Source: Dickeya dadantii NCPPB 898
GTDB taxonomy: Bacteria > Pseudomonadota > Gammaproteobacteria > Enterobacterales > Enterobacteriaceae
Length of the DNA: 32,000 nt
Assembly (NCBI RefSeq): GCF_000406145.1
Contig: NZ_CM001976.1
Coordinates: forward strand, 4,207,472-4,239,471
Direction of reading: 5' to 3'
Of this stretch, positions 6,560 through 23,331 are shown in pieces. The notes beneath the pieces were generated by a model. It was not told the DNA's origin, searched no databases, and saw only the letters and a list, made by a program, of their open reading frames with translations. The position numbers and the translations under genes were made by a program. Numbering within the stretch: position 1 is the first letter of the stretch; every line of letters begins with the position of its first letter.

Positions 6560-7924
6560 ATGAACGACACGGTGCTGACAATATGGCAACAGGCGAGGAT
6601 CAGCCGCGATCCGCGTTTTGACGGCACCTTTTTCGTCGCCGTCAAATCCACCGGTATTTTCTGCCGCCCCATCTGCCCGGCGTCGTTGCCGCTGGAGAAG
6701 AACGTCGTTTACTACCGCACCCGCACCGAGGCGATTCAGGCCGGTTTTCGCCCCTGCCTGCGCTGCAAGCCGGAATACGCGCCGCGCTTTGCCGAACTGG
6801 ACCGCAAACAGCTACTGCCGGTGCGCATCGCCGCCGCCATCGACAGCGGTGAACACCTGCTGTCGAAGGTGGAGCAGATTGCCGATGCCCACTTTCTCTC
6901 CAGCCGCTACCTGAACCGGTTGTTCCGCGAGCATTACGGCTGTTCGGTGAAGGAATACCAAAACATCGCGAAGATTTTTTTCGCCAAAAAGCTGTTCCAA
7001 AGCTCCAGCCTCAGCATCACCGATATCGCCGCATCGTGCGGATTCAGCGGCCTGAGCGGGTTTTATCAGCTTATCGACAAATACCTGAAAACCACGCCCA
7101 AACGGATGATGCTGTCGCCATCGGACAGCCGGAATAAGACCGAACACATCAGGCTGCGCCTGCCGGTCGGCGGGCGCTACCACTGGGATTATTTTCTGGC
7201 GTTCCAGTCGCGGCGGTTGATCGACGGCGTGGAATGGATCGAGGGCGCCACTTACGGCCGCCGCTTTAGCCTTAACGGCGAGAGGGGGTCGTTTCAGATA
7301 CGTCCGGCGACGGGCGGGTTTGATGTGACGATCGCGCTAAGCCGCCTGACGCTGTTGTCGCAGGTGCTGGAGCGGATCCGCAACCTGTTCGATCTCAACG
7401 TCAATATCGAGGCGGTCGAGGATCAGTTGCGTCGAGCCTATCCGACATTGCCGATCGTCCCCGGCATCCGCATTCCCGGCGTGTTCTCACCGTTTGAAGC
7501 CGCTCTCCGCGCCGTTTGCGGTCAGCAGGTGAGCGTATCCGCCGCCACCACGCTGCTGAACCAGCTGGTGTCGCTCTGCGCGATTGAGGAAGACGGCCAG
7601 CGTTATTTCCCAACGCCGGATCGCATTACGCCAGAGGTTGTCGGCCAACTGCGCACCATGCAGTCGAAAAAAGCCACGCTGGTGAATATCGCCGACTGGT
7701 TCTGCCACCACGACCTCAGCGAGATCGACAGGCTCACCGAGGTCAAAGGCGTCGGTCGCTGGACGCTCGATTATTTGAAACTGCGTTCGCTCAACGATCC
7801 CGATATCTGGCTTGGCGGCGATCTCGGCATCCGCAACGCTTTGCGCCAGTTGGGTGACATCGACCCGCAGCGGGCGGCGCCGTGGAAAAGCTACCTCACG
7901 CTGCATCTGTGGAACACGCTGTAA
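6560..7924 (+). CDS. Ada-AlkA fusion: Ada Zn-finger methylphosphotriester acceptor + AraC HTH + AlkA-type DNA-3-methyladenine glycosylase
   Basis: The N-terminus FVAVKSTGIFCRPICPA..GFRPCLRCKP carries the Ada Cys4 pattern. It is followed by an AraC-type HTH, then an AlkA_N / HhH-GPD region (..VKGVGRWTLDYLKLRSL..GGDLGIRNAL). The SD is gaggaa. Confidence 0.85.
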   Translation: MNDTVLTIWQQARISRDPRFDGTFFVAVKSTGIFCRPICPASLPLEKNVVYYRTRTEAIQAGFRPCLRCKPEYAPRFAELDRKQLLPVRIAAAIDSGEHLLSKVEQIADAHFLSSRYLNRLFREHYGCSVKEYQNIAKIFFAKKLFQSSSLSITDIAASCGFSGLSGFYQLIDKYLKTTPKRMMLSPSDSRNKTEHIRLRLPVGGRYHWDYFLAFQSRRLIDGVEWIEGATYGRRFSLNGERGSFQIRPATGGFDVTIALSRLTLLSQVLERIRNLFDLNVNIEAVEDQLRRAYPTLPIVPGIRIPGVFSPFEAALRAVCGQQVSVSAATTLLNQLVSLCAIEEDGQRYFPTPDRITPEVVGQLRTMQSKKATLVNIADWFCHHDLSEIDRLTEVKGVGRWTLDYLKLRSLNDPDIWLGGDLGIRNALRQLGDIDPQRAAPWKSYLTLHLWNTL

Positions 7925-7937
7925 ACATGCGCTATCC

Positions 7938-8067
7938 GTGGAAAAAGCATGCTGTGGAAAAAAACATGCAGTGGAAAAAGCATTCGGTGGAAAAACATGT
8001 TGAGGAAGAACATTCAGTGAAAAAACAGACCGTGGAAACACGTTTTGTGGAGGAACACCCTGTGAAG
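7938..8067 (+). repeat. About 8.5 degenerate tandem units of 15-17 bp (GTGGAAAAAnCATnn) between the Ada-AlkA stop and the conserved Ogt start
   Basis: Units start at 7938, 7954, 7971, 7987, 8002, 8017, 8032, 8047 and 8062. Unit lengths are 16, 17, 16, 15, 15, 15, 15 and 15. All units are purine-rich and stop-free in several frames. Confidence 0.85.
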
Positions 8068-8610
8068 ATGGCGACGCAACAACTGGACTGCCCGAACGGT
8101 TTCCCCTGGCGCTACGCCGACGTCACCGCCGCTGACGGCTGCGTGACCAGCGTGCTGTTCAGCAACGAGAAAAAAACCGCCCGGCCGGATACCGTCACAC
8201 AAACCTGCTGCCGGCAGTTGCAGGAATATTTCGCCGGCCAGCGCACCACCTTCGACCTGCCGCTGCATCAGGACGCCACGCCGTTCCGCCGGCAGGTCTA
8301 CGCCCGGCTGCTGGATATCGGCTACGGCGTGACCCGTAGTTACCAGCACGTCGCCATCGCCGTCGGCAACCCCAAAGGGTCGCGGGCGGTAGGCATGGCG
8401 TCGTCCAAAAACCAGATTTCCATCATCGTGCCCTGCCACCGGGTGATCGCGACCTCCGGCGCGCTGACCGGTTACGCCGGCGGGCTGGCGACCAAACAGT
8501 GGCTACTGGCGCACGAACGGCGTCATGCCGTTAAGACGGCAGCAGCGTCTGCAACCACTGTCGCTGCTGCTGATGCTGACGCTGTAAGCGCAGGTAATCG
8601 CCCGCTTTAA
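8068..8610 (+). CDS. ogt: Methylated-DNA--protein-cysteine S-methyltransferase (Ogt/AdaB type)
   Basis: It carries the active-site motif IIVPCHRVI and ..YAGGLATKQWLLAHE. The start is placed at ATG 8068 (MATQQLD..) after the GGAGGA. An alternative ATG at 7927 would translate the repeat array. The last roughly 28 aa run antisense into nifM. Confidence 0.85.
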   Translation: MATQQLDCPNGFPWRYADVTAADGCVTSVLFSNEKKTARPDTVTQTCCRQLQEYFAGQRTTFDLPLHQDATPFRRQVYARLLDIGYGVTRSYQHVAIAVGNPKGSRAVGMASSKNQISIIVPCHRVIATSGALTGYAGGLATKQWLLAHERRHAVKTAAASATTVAAADADAVSAGNRPL

Positions 8611-9343
8611 CCAGCGCCTCCGCTTCCGGCAGCGGCACGGCCGGACGAATCGCCTCACAGCGCAGCAGATGCAGGCCCAGTTCGGTCTCCACCGGTTCGC
8701 TCAGCTCCCCCACCGCCAGCGCAAACAGGCAACGCTCCAGCGCCGGAAACAACAGGCCGCGGCTGACCCAGCCCATCAGCCCCCCCTCCAACGCGGTCGG
8801 GCAGTGGGAATGGCGCTGCGCCAGCGACGCAAAGCCGTCCGGATCGGCACGCAACTGACGTAACATCCCCGCCACCTGTTGATCGACCGCCGGGCGGTTA
8901 CCATCGACAGTCAGCAGTAGATGGCGGGTCAGCCGCTGCTCCGGTCGGCGGAAACGGTCGGCGTGCTGTCGATACCAGCGCCGAACCTCCGCCGGTTGCG
9001 GTTCGTCGGCCTGCGCGCCGACGCTCGCCAGTTGCAATTCCATCAACGAGTGATGCAGCACAATGGCCCGCTGCTCGTCGGCGGAAAACCCGGCGCTAAC
9101 CAGCTCCTGCGCCAGCTGTTGCGCCACCTGCTGCAATTGCGCGCTTGTCGCGGTCAGCGACTGTTGGCAGGCCGCCGCCGCCACTGCCTGCTCCAGCGCC
9201 AGCTGGCGCAGCAGTTGACGCTCAAAACGCGGCAGCTCCGCCTCAGGTAGTTGCTCCGGTAGACAATGCCAACGGGTCTGCGCCAGCCGCAGGCGGCTAA
9301 AGCGCTGCCAGGCCGGCGGCGTCATGCTTTCTCGCCCGGTCAT
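8531..9343 (-). CDS. nifM: NifM, parvulin-type PPIase required for NifH maturation
   Basis: ..RPEQRLTRHLLLTVD..LAQRHSHCPTALEGG..GWVSRGLL.. matches K. pneumoniae NifM. The ATG at 9343 overlaps the nifZ stop (ATGA). The ORF-track extension to 9655 was rejected. Confidence 0.9.
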   Translation of the reverse strand: MTGRESMTPPAWQRFSRLRLAQTRWHCLPEQLPEAELPRFERQLLRQLALEQAVAAAACQQSLTATSAQLQQVAQQLAQELVSAGFSADEQRAIVLHHSLMELQLASVGAQADEPQPAEVRRWYRQHADRFRRPEQRLTRHLLLTVDGNRPAVDQQVAGMLRQLRADPDGFASLAQRHSHCPTALEGGLMGWVSRGLLFPALERCLFALAVGELSEPVETELGLHLLRCEAIRPAVPLPEAEALVKAGDYLRLQRQHQQQRQWLQTLLPS

Positions 9344-9783
9344 TCCGCCACCTCCAGGTTGTACAGCGCCGATACCGGCACCTGAAACTGCCGTTCGCCG
9401 AACAGCACGATGCAGCTGTCGCACCGCTCTCCCTGCGCGGTCGCCAGCACCTCGCCCTGCAGGCCCGCCGCCGCCACGATATCGCCGCCGATCGCCAGCG
9501 GCTGCACGCAGCGCACCCGGTCGCCGTACTGAAAATCCCCGGCCAGCCAGGGCCGATCGGCGTCGATCAGCTCTGACTCGCGGCAGCCGACGACCCGATC
9601 CCGATCGAGAAAATGCACCTGATAGATGATCTGATCCTGCAGAAATACCCCCCACTCGCGCACATACCCGACACTGCCGCGGCGCACCAGCAACTCACCG
9701 CGCGCCCGGCCGACGAACGTGCCGTCGTTACGCAGCGCGCGCACCACCCGCACGGCGTCACCGCACTCAAATTTCGGCGTCAT
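9340..9783 (-). CDS. nifZ: NifZ
   Basis: MTPKFECGDAVRVVRALRNDGT..GVFLQDQIIYQVHF.. is collinear with K. pneumoniae NifZ. Confidence 0.92.
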   Translation of the reverse strand: MTPKFECGDAVRVVRALRNDGTFVGRARGELLVRRGSVGYVREWGVFLQDQIIYQVHFLDRDRVVGCRESELIDADRPWLAGDFQYGDRVRCVQPLAIGGDIVAAAGLQGEVLATAQGERCDSCIVLFGERQFQVPVSALYNLEVAE

Positions 9784-12481: not shown

Positions 12482-13309
12482 TTACGCCGCCACCACGTCC
12501 ATATACTGCCCGGTGCGCTCCACCAGCTTCTGCTGCAGCCAGGCCAGCGTCATGTCGGTCATCATGCAGCCGTTGCAACTGCCGGACAGGCTCACCGTGA
12601 CCTGACGCTCGCTGACATTCACCAGTGACATATCGCCGCCGTCGGCCTGAATATGCGGCCGCAGCTCCGCCACCGCCTCCGCCACCTGTTGCCAGCGCGC
12701 ATCCTTCACCACTATCGCCGCCGCAGCCGGCGTCGCCTCGTGCTCGCTCAGGATCTGCGCCAGCGCCAGCTCGATCTTTTCATGGCAGGCGCTGCAACCG
12801 CCGCCCGCTTTGGTGTAGTTGATCACTTCCTGCAACGTCGTCAGGCCGTTAGCCACCACCGCGCGGCGGATCTGCCCTTCATCCACCGCAAAGCATTTGC
12901 AGATCAGCGCCCCTTCCTCGTGATCGTCTTCCAGCGTTTCGCCGCGGTAGTTGGCGATCGCCACCCGCAACGCTTCCTGACCCATCACCGAGCAATGCAT
13001 TTTTTCCGGCGGCAGACCGTCGAGATAATCGGCGATCTGTTGGTTGGTTACCTGTTCCGCTTCCCGCAGGGTGCGGCCGATGATCAGCTCCGTCAGCGCC
13101 GAAGACGACGCGATGGCGCTGCCGCAGCCGAACGTCTGAAACCCGGCGTCGAGGATGGTTTCGCTGTCCGGGTCGACGCGCAGCATCAACCGTAGGGCAT
13201 CGCCGCAGCTGAGCGAACCGACATCGCCCACGGCGTTGGCTTCCGCCACCACCCTGGCGTTGCGGGGATTAAAAAAATGGTCTTTCACTTTCTCGGAATA
13301 GTTCCACAT
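12482..13309 (-). CDS. nifU: NifU, Fe-S cluster scaffold
   Basis: [40 protein letters not shown].. follows the NifU domain order. Confidence 0.96.
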
Positions 13310-13400
13310 CTGCTCTGCTCCCTACTGAATGGGTGAAAACGCCGGGCACCCAGCCGCCCGGCGCTCACGCGCGTTGCATGGTCTGAGTAAGCAGAGTCAG

Positions 13401-13417
13401 AGCAAATGTGATGCCAG
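13401..13417 (-). promoter_or_regulatory. Sigma54 -24/-12 promoter of nifUSVWZM
   Basis: The minus strand reads CTGGCATCACATTTGCT (GG-N10-GC). Compare Klebsiella nifU CTGGTATCGCAATTGCT as I recall it. Confidence 0.7.
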
Positions 13418-13500
13418 TCACAGAAATAAATGCAGATCAACGAGATAGCCGCGACGGCCGCTAAAAAAACCACCACGAATGTCGCGGTTTATGTCGGGTT

Positions 13501-13516
13501 TGTCAGAGAGGTGACA
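13501..13516. promoter_or_regulatory. NifA UAS (TGT-N10-ACA) for nifU
   Basis: Exact TGTCAGAGAGGTGACA, about 100 bp upstream of the nifU -24/-12 element. Confidence 0.65.
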
Positions 13517-13773
13517 TTAATCAAAGGCTATCCTTCCAGTGCGAAAGCCTGACCGCAGGGAAATAGATTCTCACTTGGGGTGCTATTAAATAGCTTTTCC
13601 GCTTTTAGTTGGATCATAAAGAGAGTTTGCACAACACTTAACGCATACTGCATGAATGTGTATTCGATCTGAAAAATTATTTAACCATTTTAATTTTCAA
13701 ATATCTTATTTATGATATAAAATCATAAGGTTATAGGGCAGAGGGAAAATGGATTTTTTCATAAGGAGATGAT

Positions 13774-14577
13774 ATGAATGCTATTGAGTCATCCGTTGGC
13801 CTTGGCGGTATAAATAGGAAAAACGATGTTACTATCGTGCAACAGTTATTGAGGAACAGTGGCTTTCCATATTTACGCGTGGATGGAATTTGCGGGAGAA
13901 ACACAAAAAGAGCAATTATTGCTTATCAAAAGTACTTCCACTTCTCTCCTTATGGCATTATAGAACCCGGCGGAAAAACCATTGAAAACCTTACATCAAC
14001 TTCGCATACAGATTCTTTACCTAATCCTCATGGAGCGACAGGAATAAACCCCAGAGGTGAAAGAAAAAGAGCATCCCTCATGTCCCCCAGCTCTCAATGC
14101 ATTTATTTAATGAAGCAATATGAAAAACTGAAAACTAAGCCTTATGATGATCAGACTGGAAGGGAAACAACATTTTGGAAAGTAGGCGCCACAATAGGTT
14201 ATGGGCATTTAATTAGTGAGAATGAATTTGAACGATATAAGCAAGGAATAGCTCTTTCTGAAGCAGACACGTTATTCGCCCAAGATATTAGCAGATTCAT
14301 ACTAGCGGTTAGAAACTTTGTTAAAGTGGATATCACTCAAAATGAATTTGATGCACTCGTCATGCTATCTTTTAATATTGGAATAAAGGATAGACAGAGA
14401 CACAGAGGATTATATTACTCAACCGTCTTAAAAATCATAAATGGTGAATCGTCAGAAAACATAGATAACGCATGGATGAGATATACAATATCTCAGGGGC
14501 ACCAAATGCGGGGGTTAGTTAACAGAAGAAGAAGTGAACTAAATGTATATCACAAAGGTAATTATATAAAATTATGA
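13774..14577 (+). CDS. Peptidoglycan-binding domain + GH24 (T4/phage-type) lysozyme; candidate T6SS muramidase effector or endolysin-derived toxin
   Basis: The N-terminus DVTIVQQLLRNSGF..VDGICGRNTKRAIIAYQ is PG_binding_1-like. The C-terminus has ..QYEKLKTKPYDD..ATIGYGH..NEFDALVMLSFNIG..RGLVNRRRSE, the lysozyme E/D/T and core motifs. The SD AAGGAG is strong. Confidence 0.8.
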   Translation: MNAIESSVGLGGINRKNDVTIVQQLLRNSGFPYLRVDGICGRNTKRAIIAYQKYFHFSPYGIIEPGGKTIENLTSTSHTDSLPNPHGATGINPRGERKRASLMSPSSQCIYLMKQYEKLKTKPYDDQTGRETTFWKVGATIGYGHLISENEFERYKQGIALSEADTLFAQDISRFILAVRNFVKVDITQNEFDALVMLSFNIGIKDRQRHRGLYYSTVLKIINGESSENIDNAWMRYTISQGHQMRGLVNRRRSELNVYHKGNYIKL

Positions 14578-14978
14578 AGAAAATAATCACATCAATAATT
14601 GCAATTATGATTATTTCATTCAATGCATTCTCTAAAGAAGAGAATCCCGCCCTCCCTTTTTTCGAAGGAGAAACATATAATATTTATTTATCCTATGGTA
14701 AGTGTTCTCGACATGACATCGAATGCAGCGATATAACATATCATTCAATTAATAAAAAGAATAAAAGCGAGTTAAATATAAAAGGAAAAACATTAAATGT
14801 AGGGCCATCAAAAGACTTCAGAGGGTATATATTTAAAAATGGCTCATACACTTATACACTCACCCCTTCTCCAGAAGCAGATAATTATGATGACAGCATC
14901 TGGTTCCTGGATGTCTATAAAACAACAGACAATGGTGACAAATCTATTTTCAGAGAAAAAGGAAGGGTATCTGATTAG
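14574..14978 (+). CDS. Secreted (Sec signal peptide) small protein, candidate periplasmic immunity or lysozyme inhibitor
   Basis: Its start overlaps the lysozyme stop (ATGA). The signal peptide is MKKIITSIIAIMIISFNAFS/KE. The protein is 134 aa with two Cys. I recognise no family. Confidence 0.6.
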   Translation: MKKIITSIIAIMIISFNAFSKEENPALPFFEGETYNIYLSYGKCSRHDIECSDITYHSINKKNKSELNIKGKTLNVGPSKDFRGYIFKNGSYTYTLTPSPEADNYDDSIWFLDVYKTTDNGDKSIFREKGRVSD

Positions 14979-15007
14979 TAAAATAAAAAGAATAATTAGC
15001 CTACAGT

Positions 15008-15031
15008 AAAAGCCTGTAACAACAGGCTTTT
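15008..15031. terminator. Bidirectional rho-independent terminator between the convergent immunity-like gene and hcp
   Basis: aaaagcctgt-aaca-acaggctttt is a perfect 10-bp stem with A/T runs on both sides. Confidence 0.7.
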
Positions 15032-15059
15032 ACAAGATAAAAAATCAATTTAATATGAA

Positions 15060-15545
15060 TTAAAATTGATTATCATTCCATATACTATATCCTGATGTGC
15101 CTGCGGTTTTATGGGTCCATTCTATAGTGTTATACCGGAGCATGATAACTTCATATGGTAGAGAATCACTATCATTTAACGAATGCGGATAAGTTGCTGA
15201 TACTTCAACAATTCTGGCATCAGTAAGTTTTAATTCATAAAAAACCTCTAGTTGTCCAGCCAGGTTTGTCCGATAAAAGAAAAAAGTAAGCAGTAAGTGA
15301 TTCATTTGATGTAACAGAAACACCAAGCAAAGGAGAGGAGAGGATTTATCTATCGGTTTAATCAGCTGTATAGGATGATGGGCTATATTCTCCTCTCGGG
15401 TTATCGTATGGTTTAACCCCAACACCTGTATTTGGTCTTCATGCCCTTTCTGATAACGATTTCCAATAGAATCAAATGTTGAGCACCCCGAAGAAATTAG
15501 CCCCTGCTGATTACCTTCCAGAGTCAGATAAATAATATGTGACAT
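15060..15545 (-). CDS. hcp: Hcp, type VI secretion tube/chaperone protein (orphan copy)
   Basis: IYLTLEGNQQGLISSGCSTFDSIGNRYQKGHEDQIQVL..FYRT..IEWTHKTAGTSG matches the enterobacterial Hcp pattern (..IEGQTQGLITAGA.T.DSIG....GHEDE..). It is 161 aa. Confidence 0.85.
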   Translation of the reverse strand: MSHIIYLTLEGNQQGLISSGCSTFDSIGNRYQKGHEDQIQVLGLNHTITREENIAHHPIQLIKPIDKSSPLLCLVFLLHQMNHLLLTFFFYRTNLAGQLEVFYELKLTDARIVEVSATYPHSLNDSDSLPYEVIMLRYNTIEWTHKTAGTSGYSIWNDNQF

Positions 15546-15862
15546 TGATTACCATCCTTGTGAAAATAATATAATCGCACCATATTAATAGTGTTCATGG
15601 ATAGTACATCAAAAAAATTCAAAAAATAAATTAAATTAGCAAATAAGTATATAATCTCTTGGATAGTTTCCTATGGGTATACTGCATTCATTACTTAAAT
15701 AACGGCGATCAATTATATCAAGTGAGATTATAACTGCTGGCGTCGTTATAGGACTTGCTGCTGCCCTAACCCGGAACAATTTTAAAACCAGAGCCTCGAT
15801 TAAGGATGCGCCTATTTTTCGTGGGTAAAATCAAATTCACCGGCTAACCATGACAAGCAAAA

Positions 15863-16090
15863 CTATGTTTTCTTTTTCAAAAACACGCCAACCAGGTACG
15901 TTACGGCAAAAGATAAAACGGACGATATCAGTACCTTGATAACCAATACTGAAAAATAGAAATCATCCATCGCTTCTTCGCCATCGCCGCTGATAGTCAG
16001 GTGGCTCATAACAAAATCCCTTAATGCCTGTTCAGGCAGGATAGATGCGAACAAGAAGAGCAAAATAAGAAAATAAATTATATTTTTCAT
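15863..16090 (-). CDS. Hypothetical small two-TM membrane protein
   Basis: MKNIIYFLILLFLFASILP.. is followed by a second hydrophobic helix (VLVIKVLISSVLSFAVTYLVGVFL). There is no clear SD. The TTG start at 16114 in the ORF track is less likely. Confidence 0.4.
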   Translation of the reverse strand: MKNIIYFLILLFLFASILPEQALRDFVMSHLTISGDGEEAMDDFYFSVLVIKVLISSVLSFAVTYLVGVFLKKKT

Positions 16091-16161
16091 AAAATTACGC
16101 AAAAATTCCAACACAACGCCAGTCGGTCGCGTTTCGAACAGCGCAACGCCCTGGCCTCAGG

Positions 16162-16186
16162 GACAAGGCTCATGACGAGCCTTGTC
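16162..16186 (-). terminator. Perfect 10-bp hairpin downstream of nifX (possible end of nifENX transcript)
   Basis: gacaaggctc-atgac-gagccttgtc lies about 35 nt after the nifX stop. No U-tract follows. Confidence 0.35.
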
Positions 16187-16220
16187 ACGCGGCAACCCCA
16201 GAAGCTTACATAACCCTCAC

Positions 16221-16688
16221 TCACAACACATCATCCTCCTCGCTCCACTGCTGTTCGGCGATCAACCGATCGAAACGATCAGGGTCGCGCTGGCGGCGGG
16301 CAACGCGCTGATCGTCGTCGTGCCAGCACTGTTGAATTTGTTGTAGCAGTTGGGCGATCGGCGTGTCGGCCGGTACGCGCACCGCCCGCACCCCCACCTG
16401 CAGCAACTGGCGGAACACGGCGTCGCCAATCGCCACGCAATACAGCGTGACGCAATCTTCCAGTGCGTCGATGCGACAGGTGAGTTTGTCCTCCTGATGG
16501 CCGTAGCGCACGTTGAAATCCACCACTTTCAGCAGCGTGACCTGATCTTCCTTTACGCCGTAAACCACCAGCCGGGGCGTGGCGCCAAAGTGCTGATCGA
16601 CATGGTGATAGTCAGAACTGGCGAACGCCACCTTCATGGACCACACGCCCGCGCTGATGGCGCTGAGATGCCGGTTAATATGCTGCAT
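16221..16688 (-). CDS. nifX: NifX
   Basis: ..WSMKVAFASSDYHHVDQHFGATPRLVVYGVK..CVAIGDAVFRQLLQVGVRA.. is nearly collinear with K. pneumoniae NifX. The start MQHINR overlaps the nifN end. Confidence 0.93.
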   Translation of the reverse strand: MQHINRHLSAISAGVWSMKVAFASSDYHHVDQHFGATPRLVVYGVKEDQVTLLKVVDFNVRYGHQEDKLTCRIDALEDCVTLYCVAIGDAVFRQLLQVGVRAVRVPADTPIAQLLQQIQQCWHDDDQRVARRQRDPDRFDRLIAEQQWSEEDDVL

Positions 16689-19892: not shown

Positions 19893-21485
19893 ATGTTAGA
19901 AAAAATCAAAATAAAAAATGGGCTTTACTGCGTTATCGCCGTATTTGTGCTGCTATTACTTTCCATTTGCACGTACAGTCTGTATTCCTCCATGCAAAGC
20001 AACCTGTCGATCCGAAAGGTCAACAGCATTGATGGAGAACAGCTTATCCCCCTTTATTCCGCCTATTCGGAAATGCTCAATGCCAGACTGGCCGGCATCA
20101 ACGTCGCGCTGGCGATTGAGGAAAAAAAGGATAACGCCACGATCGACGCCGCATTGAACCGGCTTAACGGCTATATCGACGCCGCCAACGGTACGATGGC
20201 GGAACTGCGCAATATTCCGACGCTGACGTCGCAAGGCCGCGCGCTGCGCGGTGAAATCGATGAAGCCTTCAATGACTACATGAACAACGCCGTCGCCCCG
20301 ATGCTCACCGCGCTGCGCGAGCGCAACGTTGAGCGGTTCTACACCACGCTGGTGCCCAGTGCACTGGAGAAAGGCGCGACCTTCCGCCAGAAGCTGACGC
20401 AGTTTGTCACCTTCGCCAAAGGTATCGGGCATGAAGAGATCGCACAGGCGGACAGCTTCTATCAGCAAACATTAACGGTCCTGATCGCCACGCTGGGTGT
20501 GGTGGTGCTCATCAGTCTATTCACCCTGAAGTTCATCCGCACCGTGGTGCTGACCCCGATGCAGAAAGTCAGAACCTATTTCGGCATGATGGAACAAGGC
20601 GTACTGACGCTGGATATTCCTCCTCAGCACAATACCGAGATGGGCGGGCTGATGGTTTCGCTGAAAGACATGCAGCAGGCATTCCGCAAAATCGTGCTGG
20701 ATGTCAGAGACTCGGCCGGTTCCGTGGCGGCCGGCGCGGAACAGATCTCCGCCGCCAACCGGGATTTCGCCGCCCGTACCGAAGCGCAGGCGTCATCCGT
20801 CGAGCAAACCGCCGCCAGCATGGAACAAATCACCGCATCTGTGCAGGAAAACACCGCCAACACCGGCAAAGCCATGACTCTGACCAACTCCGTGGCGACG
20901 CTGGCGGAAAAAAACGCCAGCAACTTTAGCCAGATGATCGAACGCATCCAGCATATCGCCGACAGCTCCAACAAGATCAACGATATCATCAGCATCATGG
21001 ACGGCATCGCCTTCCAGACCAACATTCTGGCGCTTAACGCCGCGGTGGAAGCCGCCCGCGCGGGCGAAGCCGGTAAAGGCTTTGCGGTGGTGGCGTCTGA
21101 AGTGCGCAGTCTGGCGCAGCGCAGCGCCGGGTCAGCGCGAGAAATCAAAGAGTTGATCGAAAAAACGGCCAGTGAAATCGCTCTGGGCGAAAAAGTCGCC
21201 TCGCTCTCCACCCAGGATATGACGCGGCTGATGGATGAGATTAAACGCGTGAATGAATTCATGGCGGATATCTCGATGGCTTCATCAGAGCAAGCCAAAG
21301 GCATCGAACAGGTTAACACCGCCATCACCCTGCTTGAGCAAGCCTCCCAGCAAAACGCGGCGCTGGTCGAAGAGTCCGCCTCCGCCAGTTCCTCGCTGCA
21401 CGAACAGGCGAAAAATCTGGACGACACCATGACGTTTTTCAACCTGAGCGACAACAGCCCACTGGCTATCGCCGCGCCGCGTTGA
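19893..21485 (+). CDS. Methyl-accepting chemotaxis protein (four-helix-bundle periplasmic sensor, HAMP, MA signalling domain)
   Basis: It has two TM segments, a HAMP region and the conserved hairpin ..[41 protein letters not shown]... The SD is AAAGGAGA. Confidence 0.92.
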
Positions 21486-22119: not shown

Positions 22120-23331
22120 TTAATTGAATTTTTTCTTCTTATCATGACGGTACGGCTTCGCACTGTAAGCCGGCGTCATGACTGTCGATACCGCTTGTTT
22201 AATTGACTCTTTTAATCCTTTAAACAAGCTGATTTCATTTGAGATATCCAGATAATCACTGATCCCCTGAGCCAGGGACTCAATAATAGTTTGTGCGTCA
22301 CGAATACGGAAAGTAGACGACTCAGCCAGTTTCAGCAGACAGGCTTTATCCGGAAATACCTTACTGTTTGCCATCTTGAGCGCCATCTTATTATCAATGG
22401 CGTCATAAATCAGAGTATGGGTGATATCAAACGGCGGAGAAATAAATATCCGTTTCATGTCGGGCGTATATTGCAAGGCAAAATTTTTCAGATGAGCATC
22501 GCCATTACCGATCAAACAATTAAACACAATGTATTGATACATTTTGAATACTTCATCATAACTACCGGTGTAAAGATGCGTTGCTTTCAACAATGTCTCG
22601 TAGCTGCCACTATATTTCGCATCAGGATTGTTGGATTTTTTCAGCAATGTAGTGAAATCTTCATACCCCAATCGCTGCCCTTCTGGTTTATCGAAACGCG
22701 CAACAACAAAGGTTTCAAGATTCTCTGACAACCAGGTATCAGGCGGTTCTAAACCGCAATACCTCGCCGCCCCCATACATACAAATTCATTAACCGTCAG
22801 CAAAGGAAATAGCTCGTCAAACGATTTCACGATAAGCGCTTTCTGTTCCACCGTCCTGCCTGTTTCGGGCAGGCTAACCTTGGGCTGTACGCCGGCCAGC
22901 GTATTACTCAAGTAATATTTTTCCAGCAACTGGGGAAATAACGGCTCCGCGCCCTGATAATGCAAAATCTCGGATAACGAGATATTTTCAGTTTCAGAAA
23001 AATGTAAATCGCTTTGGTAATCCAGCATGCCAATACCATGCTCTCCCTGCAATGCAAGCAGATACATATCATTGACCCGCGCATAACGGGCCAGTTTTTC
23101 CGCGATATAACGTCGGTTAAATCCTTCAGGAAGGTTCTGCGCGAAAACAGGATGCAGGGCGCCGGATACATAGCCATCCAGCGTAGAGTTTGTCATGGTT
23201 AACGACACATGATGCTGAACCTGAGTGGGCTGATAATGATGAACCGAACCGTGCGTCAGAACGCCCAATGGCTGGCCTGATGAACACACGGTAATCTTGT
23301 CGATTTTTCCGGGCAGTTGCTCCAGCACCAT
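22120..23331 (-). CDS. hipA: HipA-family Ser/Thr kinase toxin
   Basis: It has GVQPKVS (P-loop-like), NGDAHLKNFAL (catalytic loop) and SPPFDITHT (Mg-binding Asp region). It is 403 aa and the gene is AT-rich. Confidence 0.88.
   Translation of the reverse strand: MVLEQLPGKIDKITVCSSGQPLGVLTHGSVHHYQPTQVQHHVSLTMTNSTLDGYVSGALHPVFAQNLPEGFNRRYIAEKLARYARVNDMYLLALQGEHGIGMLDYQSDLHFSETENISLSEILHYQGAEPLFPQLLEKYYLSNTLAGVQPKVSLPETGRTVEQKALIVKSFDELFPLLTVNEFVCMGAARYCGLEPPDTWLSENLETFVVARFDKPEGQRLGYEDFTTLLKKSNNPDAKYSGSYETLLKATHLYTGSYDEVFKMYQYIVFNCLIGNGDAHLKNFALQYTPDMKRIFISPPFDITHTLIYDAIDNKMALKMANSKVFPDKACLLKLAESSTFRIRDAQTIIESLAQGISDYLDISNEISLFKGLKESIKQAVSTVMTPAYSAKPYRHDKKKKFN

Follow-up and report, generated by a model that had tools for sequence, protein, structure and literature searches.

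What is the gene for a phage-type lysozyme doing inside a nitrogen-fixation regulon? The question is raised by an AT-rich islet between nifX and nifU of Dickeya dadantii NCPPB 898, which we analyzed within a window of 32,000 nucleotides (contig NZ_CM001976.1 of the RefSeq assembly GCF_000406145.1, positions 4,207,472 to 4,239,471, forward strand; coordinates below are those of the window unless another locus is named). The initial annotation of this DNA had proposed an orphan Hcp-effector-immunity cassette within the nif genes, and this proposal is supported by the linkage of related gene pairs to type VI secretion system (T6SS) core genes in Pantoea and Erwinia, by the same gene layout in Rahnella and D. 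chrysanthemi, by fusions of related domains to PAAR, and by the retention of the partner gene in D. solani. The islet is probably a T6SS muramidase effector-immunity cassette with a damaged hcp gene and an orphan immunity gene, the machinery of which is encoded elsewhere in the genome. Its main parts are as follows:

13519..16219 (2,701 bp), no strand: AT-rich inserted islet, delimited by BLAST and alignment against the empty site of the Dickeya genome L015 and by the GC profile
13774..14577, plus strand: 267-amino acid (aa) muramidase, probable T6SS cargo effector (Pfam/NCBIfam profiles, homolog alignment, AlphaFold2 model)
14574..14978, plus strand: 134-aa Sec-exported partner with a hydrophobic N-terminus, its gene sharing an ATGA overlap with that of the lysozyme
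15060..15545, minus strand: hcp (tssD) with two frameshifting insertions (TIGR03344, alignments to D. chrysanthemi Ech1591 and seven D. dadantii copies)
15863..16090, minus strand: orf75, a 75-aa protein with two transmembrane (TM) segments and a GDGE loop (allele comparison, homolog family, Enterobacter context)

The enzyme

The 267-aa protein combines a peptidoglycan-binding domain with a catalytic domain of glycoside hydrolase family 24 (GH24):

aa 16-62, nt 13819-13959, plus strand: PG_binding_1 domain (profile E 2.4e-07)
aa 114-255, nt 14113-14538, plus strand: GH24 domain (Phage_lysozyme, PF00959; E 1.8e-23)

Profile searches confirmed the PG_binding_1, Phage_lysozyme and T6SS_HCP domains previously called in the islet, and the whole of PF00959 was covered with a score of 83.7 bits against a curated cutoff of 22.3. 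The residues E117, D126 and T140 do not vary across 27 homologs, and their counterparts in GH24 endolysins of solved structure lie in the motifs FEG, YDD and TIGYG; the equivalents of the catalytic Glu, Asp and Thr in T4 lysozyme are E11, D20 and T26. The AlphaFold2 model, built on the homolog alignment, reached a pLDDT of 90.8, and its best Foldseek matches were the phage GH24 endolysins 7m5i, 9kbq, 6et6, P22 and R21, with an E-value of 3.5e-09 and a TM-score of 0.80 (normalised to the target) for the top matches. The protein has no signal peptide, and its N-terminus is not hydrophobic. The open reading frame (ORF) is unbroken in all eight D. dadantii copies, an identical (100%) lysozyme is encoded in a sister genome, and the ratio of nonsynonymous to synonymous changes (pN/pS) is 0.09-0.17, the value of 0.09 being obtained against L108, one of three Dickeya genomes with a divergent copy of the islet.

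Solved T6SS muramidases were absent from the PDB sequence matches and from the fold matches of the enzyme. When the full set of PDB chains was searched with phmmer (E<=0.01), the matches were confined to GH24 lysozymes of phages or fungi and to SpmX. Although structures of Tse3 and Tge2 are in the PDB, no homology to the Tge1/Tge2 group (Tse3, Tge2) was detected, and the top 50 matches of the fold search were equally without them.

This phage-like character bears on one alternative, namely, that the islet is the remnant of a lysis cassette from a prophage or gene-transfer agent (GTA), with an endolysin, a spanin-like partner, and a holin-like protein with two TM segments. In its favor, phrog_7, an endolysin family of PHROG, is matched by the catalytic domain at 1.7e-24, as is BgtA, a model of GTA endolysins, with 80 bits; the best solved structures are those of phage endolysins, and orf75 is small, with two TM segments and a basic C-terminus. 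However, the BgtA score is far under its cutoff of 315 bits; the partner, Hcp and orf75 have no PHROG match; the partner is predicted to be β-rich rather than a coiled coil, albeit from a poor model; and orf75 homologs sit in T6SS clusters. Viral contigs contained no close relatives of the enzyme, only catalytic domains with 30-35% identity, and phage genes were found in none of approximately 30 contexts examined, so that the relatives do not present the prophage lysis cassette that the initial annotation had considered. We regard a lysis cassette as highly improbable.

The exported partner

The start of the partner gene within an ATGA overlap and the secretion of its product, both previously proposed, were borne out by the coordinates and by a hydrophobic Sec-type N-terminus, which is followed by AFS|KE. 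In this family, C44 and C51 are unvarying and an FRGY motif is conserved; pN/pS is 0.10-0.23. A partner homolog directly follows the lysozyme gene in 23 of the 80 related loci examined. No relatives of the partner were found in Pfam, NCBIfam, PHROG or the PDB; a profile of 17 family members likewise matched nothing in the PDB (best E 2.1), and Pfam scans of the individual members were empty.

In the enzyme homologs with approximately 46% identity that were examined, the overlapping next gene encodes a different kind of protein, a PF07007 LprI lysozyme-inhibitor protein (L105, 8720-9220; L106, 8765-9232), and neither locus has T6SS genes within 8 kb. The enzyme is constantly accompanied in the contexts examined by a small exported partner, the family of which is exchangeable, a pattern characteristic of immunity genes. 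The 134-aa protein is a probable periplasmic immunity protein, i.e., a lysozyme inhibitor, of an undescribed family. Three Rahnella loci (L040, L041 and L043; approximately 8810-9620) carry two tandem partner paralogs behind the lysozyme gene, which suggests duplication of the immunity gene in these three species.

Linkage to the T6SS

When T6SS markers were scored within 8 kb at the set of 80 related loci, they were present at 18, and at 13 of the 23 loci with the 134-aa partner family. Enzyme-partner pairs with 57-61% identity adjoin PpkA-ClpV-TssG-TssF-TssE on two metagenome contigs and in eight Pantoea/Erwinia species. The order of lysozyme, partner and convergent hcp recurs in five Rahnella species (enzyme identity 42-44%) and, outside nif and among chemoreceptor genes, in D. 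chrysanthemi Ech1591. DNA homology between the window and Ech1591 spans 13756-15641 only, which covers the three genes and the region upstream of hcp, and the three-gene unit is therefore a portable module. Among GH24 relatives at a greater distance, some form fusions with PAAR (Halomonas, Billgrantia) and others are located beside VgrG. The combination looked for in an effector locus, an enzyme without a Sec signal adjacent to a partner with one, is present in the islet.

The 32-kb window contains no T6SS core genes, in agreement with the initial annotation, which had suggested looking for a T6SS elsewhere in the genome; D. dadantii has been reported to possess a T6SS as well as hcp and vgrG paralogs (PMC3349551). 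In Pantoea, hcp islands have been described in which effectors with endolysin domains are followed by immunity genes encoding signal peptides, and which also contain orphan immunity genes (PMC9796082).

Considering these linkages, the following mode of action may be proposed. The 267-aa protein would be made in the cytoplasm, where it stays for want of a signal peptide, and would probably be exported on or in the Hcp tube, the product of the adjacent hcp gene being the likely dedicated carrier. Fired into the periplasm of a neighboring Gram-negative cell, it would dock on the prey cell wall through its PG_binding_1 domain, and the GH24 domain (Glu117/Asp126/Thr140) would cleave the MurNAc-GlcNAc backbone. 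Sister cells would be shielded by the co-transcribed 134-aa partner, which is predicted to be exported by Sec to the periplasm and to block the enzyme there. orf75 may provide a second, orphan immunity that guards against effectors of the Tlde1 type (L,D-transpeptidase-like) from other bacteria.

Several points weigh against this interpretation. We infer T6SS-dependent export, the carrier role of Hcp, and neutralization by the partner from gene linkage, and approximately half of the related loci lack T6SS genes over a distance of 8 kb, many homologous pairs being orphan loci. An enzyme of 30 kDa is large for cargo inside the Hcp lumen. With the adjacent hcp damaged, delivery would have to use paralogous Hcps, which are 72-73% identical, or may not occur. 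The partner showed no detectable relationship to any known inhibitor in the PDB profile search, and its AlphaFold2 model, which predicts a β-rich protein, has a pLDDT of 49 and is too poor for a fold search.

The orphan loci could also be accounted for by a bacteriocin that acts independently of the T6SS, in the manner of pesticin, with release by lysis or another route, uptake by target cells, and a periplasmic immunity protein. Pim, the immunity protein of pesticin, is periplasmic. Pesticin itself is a T4-lysozyme-like muramidase, as cited in PMC3942780, and approximately half of the related loci have no T6SS genes nearby. On the other hand, the N-terminal domain of the islet enzyme is a peptidoglycan-binding module rather than one for receptor binding or translocation, genes for lysis or release are absent, and the pair recurs in association with hcp, core genes of the T6SS, PAAR and VgrG. 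A bacteriocin of this kind thus appears very unlikely.

The position of the pair at the end of T6SS core clusters in Pantoea and Erwinia would also suit a housekeeping enzyme that, like TagX or MltE, makes room for the membrane complex in the wall of the producer itself, without being a toxin; TagX provides a precedent (PMC5061870). However, the protein has neither a signal peptide nor a membrane anchor with which to reach the periplasm of the producer, and it is constantly paired with an exported partner, the family of which varies by lineage. D. solani retains the partner after loss of the enzyme, and related domains are fused to PAAR. An assembly function is hardly credible on these grounds, and a muramidase effector with its immunity protein is the interpretation we retain.

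Damage to hcp in this strain

The initial annotation had identified the ORF at 15060-15545 as a convergent hcp gene; its family stands, and 15 residues of the core are scrambled. The 161-aa product matches TIGR03344 with 174.8 bits (cutoff 58.9; E 1.3e-51) and PF05638 (T6SS_HCP) with 70 bits (cutoff 23.5; E 3e-19), and its best PDB match is Hcp3 (3he1, 1.2e-25). Other Dickeya Hcp paralogs are 72-73% identical. In comparison with the seven other D. dadantii copies, the window copy has one additional nucleotide at 15288, in an A-run, and five at 15331-15335, where TCCTC is duplicated. Together, the two insertions keep the overall frame, and residues 73-87 are 15 out-of-frame residues (CLVFLLHQMNHLLLT) by which 13 conserved core residues (GVSVTSNESLTAT) have been swapped out. 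The seven aligned D. dadantii copies and those of other species encode canonical Hcps of 157-159 aa, the intact 159-aa form being P0168. The sister genome with the identical lysozyme has the five-nucleotide insertion alone and a product of 98 aa (P0280), and the five-nucleotide insertion therefore preceded that of the single nucleotide. The latter could be a genuine compensating slip or a sequencing error in the A-homopolymer, in either direction.

This damage raises the possibility that the islet in this strain is a defense (immunity) locus only, its cognate Hcp being crippled and its lysozyme undelivered and in the course of being lost. The scrambling of residues 73-87, the 98-aa product in the sister genome, and the insertion sequence (IS) relic described below, which may be read as decay in progress, are consistent with such a state, as is D. 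solani, in which just two small genes are left and which would represent its end. Against it, none of the eight D. dadantii copies has a broken lysozyme ORF, the pN/pS against L108 is 0.09, the hcp frame has been restored rather than left broken, further Hcp paralogs are available in the genome, and the single-nucleotide insertion, lying in a homopolymer, may be a sequencing error in either direction. We consider a purely defensive role possible, but doubtful, and continue to favor an effector-immunity cassette of which the hcp gene has been damaged.

Limits, alleles and history of the islet

Genomic contexts were obtained via NifU and via homologs of the islet proteins. L015 served as the island-free reference; its NifU is identical to that of the window, the flanks are 99.4-100% identical, and only 216 bp separate nifX from nifU. 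NifU and NifX were confirmed as the neighbors of the islet by Pfam/NCBIfam profile matches. The islet takes the place of 6 bp (GCAGTC) of L015; its boundaries lie 1 nt past the stop codon of nifX and 2 nt short of the upstream activating sequence (UAS) for NifA in the nifU promoter, which is also present in L015:

13501..13516, minus strand: native NifA UAS (TGT-N10-ACA) of the nifU promoter, found by motif scan

The regulatory region of nifU was therefore left unharmed by the insertion. Alignment with L015 revealed neither a target-site duplication nor terminal inverted repeats at the islet ends.

The AT-rich island and its four ORFs, as initially annotated, were borne out by the GC profile, in which the content falls from 0.60-0.69 over the nifS/U and nifX/N flanks to 0.30-0.40 at approximately 13550-16100 (400-bp windows); the remainder of the window lies at 0.57-0.67, with a single dip at 22-24 kb. 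The previous limits of 13560-16115 need to be corrected to 13519-16219 on the basis of the alignment with L015. Since the alignment sets the insert at these positions, the GC-rich DNA at 16115-16219 belongs to the islet, including the hairpin at 16162-16186, which had been regarded as a native structure following nifX. Considering the empty site of L015 and the AT-rich composition, the islet is neither conserved in all related nif clusters nor of native composition. Searches of plasmids and E. coli genomes with the islet DNA gave matches only to the IS relic and a short piece of hcp, and an Rfam scan of 13200-16400 detected no RNA family.

The relic in question, which the initial annotation had overlooked, lies between hcp and orf75:

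15700..15833, plus strand: right-end relic of an IS3-family element, approximately 70-75% identical to IS3/ISEc16 ends

It consists of an orfB tail with in-frame stops, followed by a terminal repeat closing in ...GGGTAAAATCA. Similar IS3/ISEc16 ends were found in >1,000 plasmids and 3,756 E. coli genomes. Approximately 135 bp of the right end are left, without an orfA/orfB transposase and paired terminal repeats, and the sequence is therefore a relic and not an element. No such relic is present at the corresponding point in D. solani or in the genomes L108-L110.

These three Dickeya genomes carry the islet at the identical site and with identical boundaries (approximately 85% identity), with approximately 318 bp in place of the IS relic that include a second copy of 13457-13520, i.e., of the nifU NifA UAS and the adjacent hairpin. 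This copy lies at 8254-8317 in L108, likewise in L109 and L110, and its tail is kept at approximately 7440-7452 in L107 (D. solani). D. solani retains the partner gene and orf75; the lysozyme segment (13691-14528) and the hcp segment (14996-15834) are gone. Where its lysozyme gene was, L107 has approximately 140 bp of GC-rich DNA unrelated to the islet (6814-6955). One site thus occurs in four forms: full; IS-scarred but otherwise full (hcp being damaged in this strain); immunity-only; and empty.

All four islet genes are under purifying selection (pN/pS 0.05-0.25). Between D. dadantii and L108, the synonymous divergence of the islet genes (13774-15545) is 0.36-0.52, approximately twice that of nifU (0.19; 12482-13309), which may reflect weaker codon constraint or a separate history. 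Taking the L108-L110 allele as ancestral, the islet may have been acquired between nifX and nifU by an ancestor shared by several Dickeya species and then decayed along different paths, through IS3 insertion followed by deletion in D. dadantii, by which the second UAS copy would have been lost, through loss of the enzyme and hcp in D. solani, and through the hcp frameshifts in the window strain. The four alleles would then offer a compact natural case of the loss of a weapon with its shield kept.

The small membrane protein orf75

A small ORF with two hydrophobic segments is present as initially annotated, whereas its GTG start at 16114, which gives an 83-aa form, does not hold; the conserved frame opens at the ATG at 16090 (MKNIIYF…KKKT), and all strain-to-strain indels lie upstream of this codon. 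orf75 is unbroken in every islet allele (pN/pS 0.05-0.25). A full-database HMMER search yielded 19 clusters of homologs of 69-78 aa from Enterobacterales and Burkholderia, with an unvarying Pro and a GDGE motif between the two hydrophobic segments; neither orf75 nor its homologs belong to a Pfam family.

An Enterobacter homolog (P0132, 39% identical) is encoded directly downstream of a Tlde1_dom (PF10908) gene in a T6SS locus with the order DotU-TagL-Hcp-ClpV-[Tlde1_dom]-[75 aa]-VgrG-lipase-PAAR, and thus occupies the Tlde1 immunity slot. Tai7 immunity proteins have been described as containing at least one TM helix while lacking annotated domains (bioRxiv 10.1101/2020.02.18.954545). No Tlde1 gene or remnant was found near orf75 in the window, D. 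solani or L108. From this context we infer for orf75 the probable role of an orphan gene for immunity, of the Tlde1-associated (Tai7/Tldi1c-like) kind. Its absence at the loci of Ech1591 and Rahnella places it outside the portable three-gene module.

In a second T6SS locus on the same Enterobacter replicon (L115; CP074179.1, 165197-177424), the 75-aa gene has no called Tlde1 gene upstream and may be another orphaned immunity gene. A holin was considered as a candidate identity for orf75 and ruled out by the absence of a PHROG match, the long acidic loop, and the presence of homologs within T6SS clusters.

Regulatory sequences

The initial annotation had also envisaged read-through from nifENX that would place hcp and the small ORF under NifA control. 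The structures that bear on transcription within the islet are as follows:

16162..16186, minus strand: perfect 10-bp stem-loop without a T-tail, in islet DNA downstream of nifX (folding free energy, ΔG, -18.7 kcal/mol; z -3.5)
16110..16133, minus strand: stem-loop of weak fold that resembles a terminator and has UUUUU behind it, between nifX and orf75 (consensus scan; ΔG -10.9 kcal/mol, z -1.3)
15006..15033, both strands: hairpin with a 12-bp stem between the convergent partner and hcp genes (ΔG -17.8/-17.9 kcal/mol, z -6.3/-4.7)

The stem-loop at 16162-16186 is conserved in L107 and L108, and the hairpin at 15006-15033 looks like a bidirectional terminator. A motif scan of the window detected no σ54 -24/-12 motif or TGT-N10-ACA from the nifX stop to hcp, and none upstream of the lysozyme gene. 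Hexamers of σ70 type lie in front of hcp (15597-15568) and of the lysozyme gene (13694-13723), although matches of this kind occur no more often than by chance in such AT-rich DNA; those of hcp lie within the segment common to the non-nif copy of Ech1591. Between nifX and hcp there are the tail-less hairpin, the weak T-tailed stem-loop, orf75, and the IS relic. Since no σ54 or NifA site was found and these stem-loops, orf75 and the relic intervene, control of hcp by NifA through read-through is unsupported.

It is nevertheless conceivable that the islet answers to the control circuit of nitrogen fixation, by which diazotrophic cells would arm or shield themselves. In all alleles the lysozyme gene, transcribed divergently from nifU, lies approximately 260 bp from the native NifA site, and in L108-L110 the duplicated NifA site and hairpin are located approximately 300 bp upstream of hcp, which leaves a slight possibility of NifA control in alleles of this type. 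The nif genes are expressed under oxygen-free conditions. The T6SS of D. dadantii, by contrast, has been reported to be down-regulated without oxygen (PMC3349551). Such wiring is very improbable in our estimation; if NifA or σ54 did drive the islet genes, this would be a T6SS weapon co-regulated with nif.

A further terminator-like hairpin with a T-run (13472-13488, minus strand) lies between the NifA UAS and the σ54 promoter of nifU, and may end nifENX transcription in the island-free allele.

Comparison with known systems

The islet pair resembles the Tge/Tgi pairs, such as Tse3-Tsi3 of P. aeruginosa (PMC3792639), in being a bicistron for a signal-less muramidase and a Sec-exported periplasmic immunity protein that is linked to hcp or the T6SS, and in its predicted action, cleavage of the glycan backbone in the prey periplasm. 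It differs in that the enzyme is a phage-type (T4/P22-like) GH24 protein with an N-terminal PG_binding_1 domain and the immunity family is undescribed, the pair being known here from its sequence; it had no sequence match to the solved Tge/Tgi chains. PF00959 proteins of C. jejuni have been predicted or described in a similar manner (PMC8285248). Phage GH24 endolysins (P22, phage 21 R21, FAHEc1; 2anv, 3hde, 7m5i) have the catalytic fold and the Glu-Asp-Thr triad in common with the islet enzyme, which adds PG_binding_1, an 8-residue insertion between Asp126 and Thr140, and T6SS linkage, and the islet has no holin, spanin or phage context.

The hcp islands of Pantoea and Erwinia (PMC3235180, PMC3942780, PMC9796082) are similar in their AT-rich, hcp-adjacent hydrolase genes, their immunity genes with signal peptides, and their orphan immunity genes. 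Their predicted endolysin or lysozyme effectors are accompanied by LprI-like or ACP-like immunity proteins, and the approximately 46%-identical enzyme homologs examined are also followed by LprI. In contrast, the Dickeya module is remote from every T6SS cluster and embedded in the nif regulon, and its partner is of neither the LprI-like nor the ACP-like type; among the Pantoea species detected here, the enzyme-partner pair is at the PpkA/ClpV end of the cluster, unlike in the hcp islands. A validated lysozyme-like effector of P. agglomerans, considered as a possible relative, proved to be a VgrG glucosaminidase of a different family (PMC9796082).

Regarding orf75, its homologs share the immunity slot after Tlde1_dom with the Tlde1-Tldi1 (Tae5-7/Tai5-7) pairs of Salmonella and Enterobacterales (bioRxiv 10.1101/2020.02.18.954545; PMC9638812), a superfamily in which orphan immunity genes, as which we read orf75, have been documented. 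The Dickeya gene differs in having no Tlde1 companion, and it is likened to Tai7/Tldi1c by their published description.

The islet is accordingly of an already known kind, a Tge/Tgi-like muramidase pair with a dedicated hcp and an orphan immunity gene, and not a new kind of system; it is an ordinary bacterial weapon cassette in an unusual location. As far as the literature searched shows, the family combining PG_binding_1 with GH24, the family of 134-aa partners, the setting assigned to the orf75 family, and the position within nif are new. These findings point to an uncharacterized T6SS muramidase family (PG_binding_1 and phage-type GH24) across Enterobacterales and to two small immunity families without a Pfam model, one of which may consist of new protein inhibitors that act on GH24 lysozymes. 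Such an inhibitor would be of practical relevance, as GH24 endolysins are under development as antibacterials.

Other inserts in the nif cluster

The nif cluster of Dickeya takes up foreign modules at operon junctions, and the flanking NifA site is undisturbed. Besides the islet, other non-nif inserts of D. dadantii in the window are ada-ogt between nifL and nifM (6560-8610), a gene for a Tar-type chemoreceptor between nifE and nifY (19893-21485), and a hipA toxin gene of approximately 45% GC (22120-23331).

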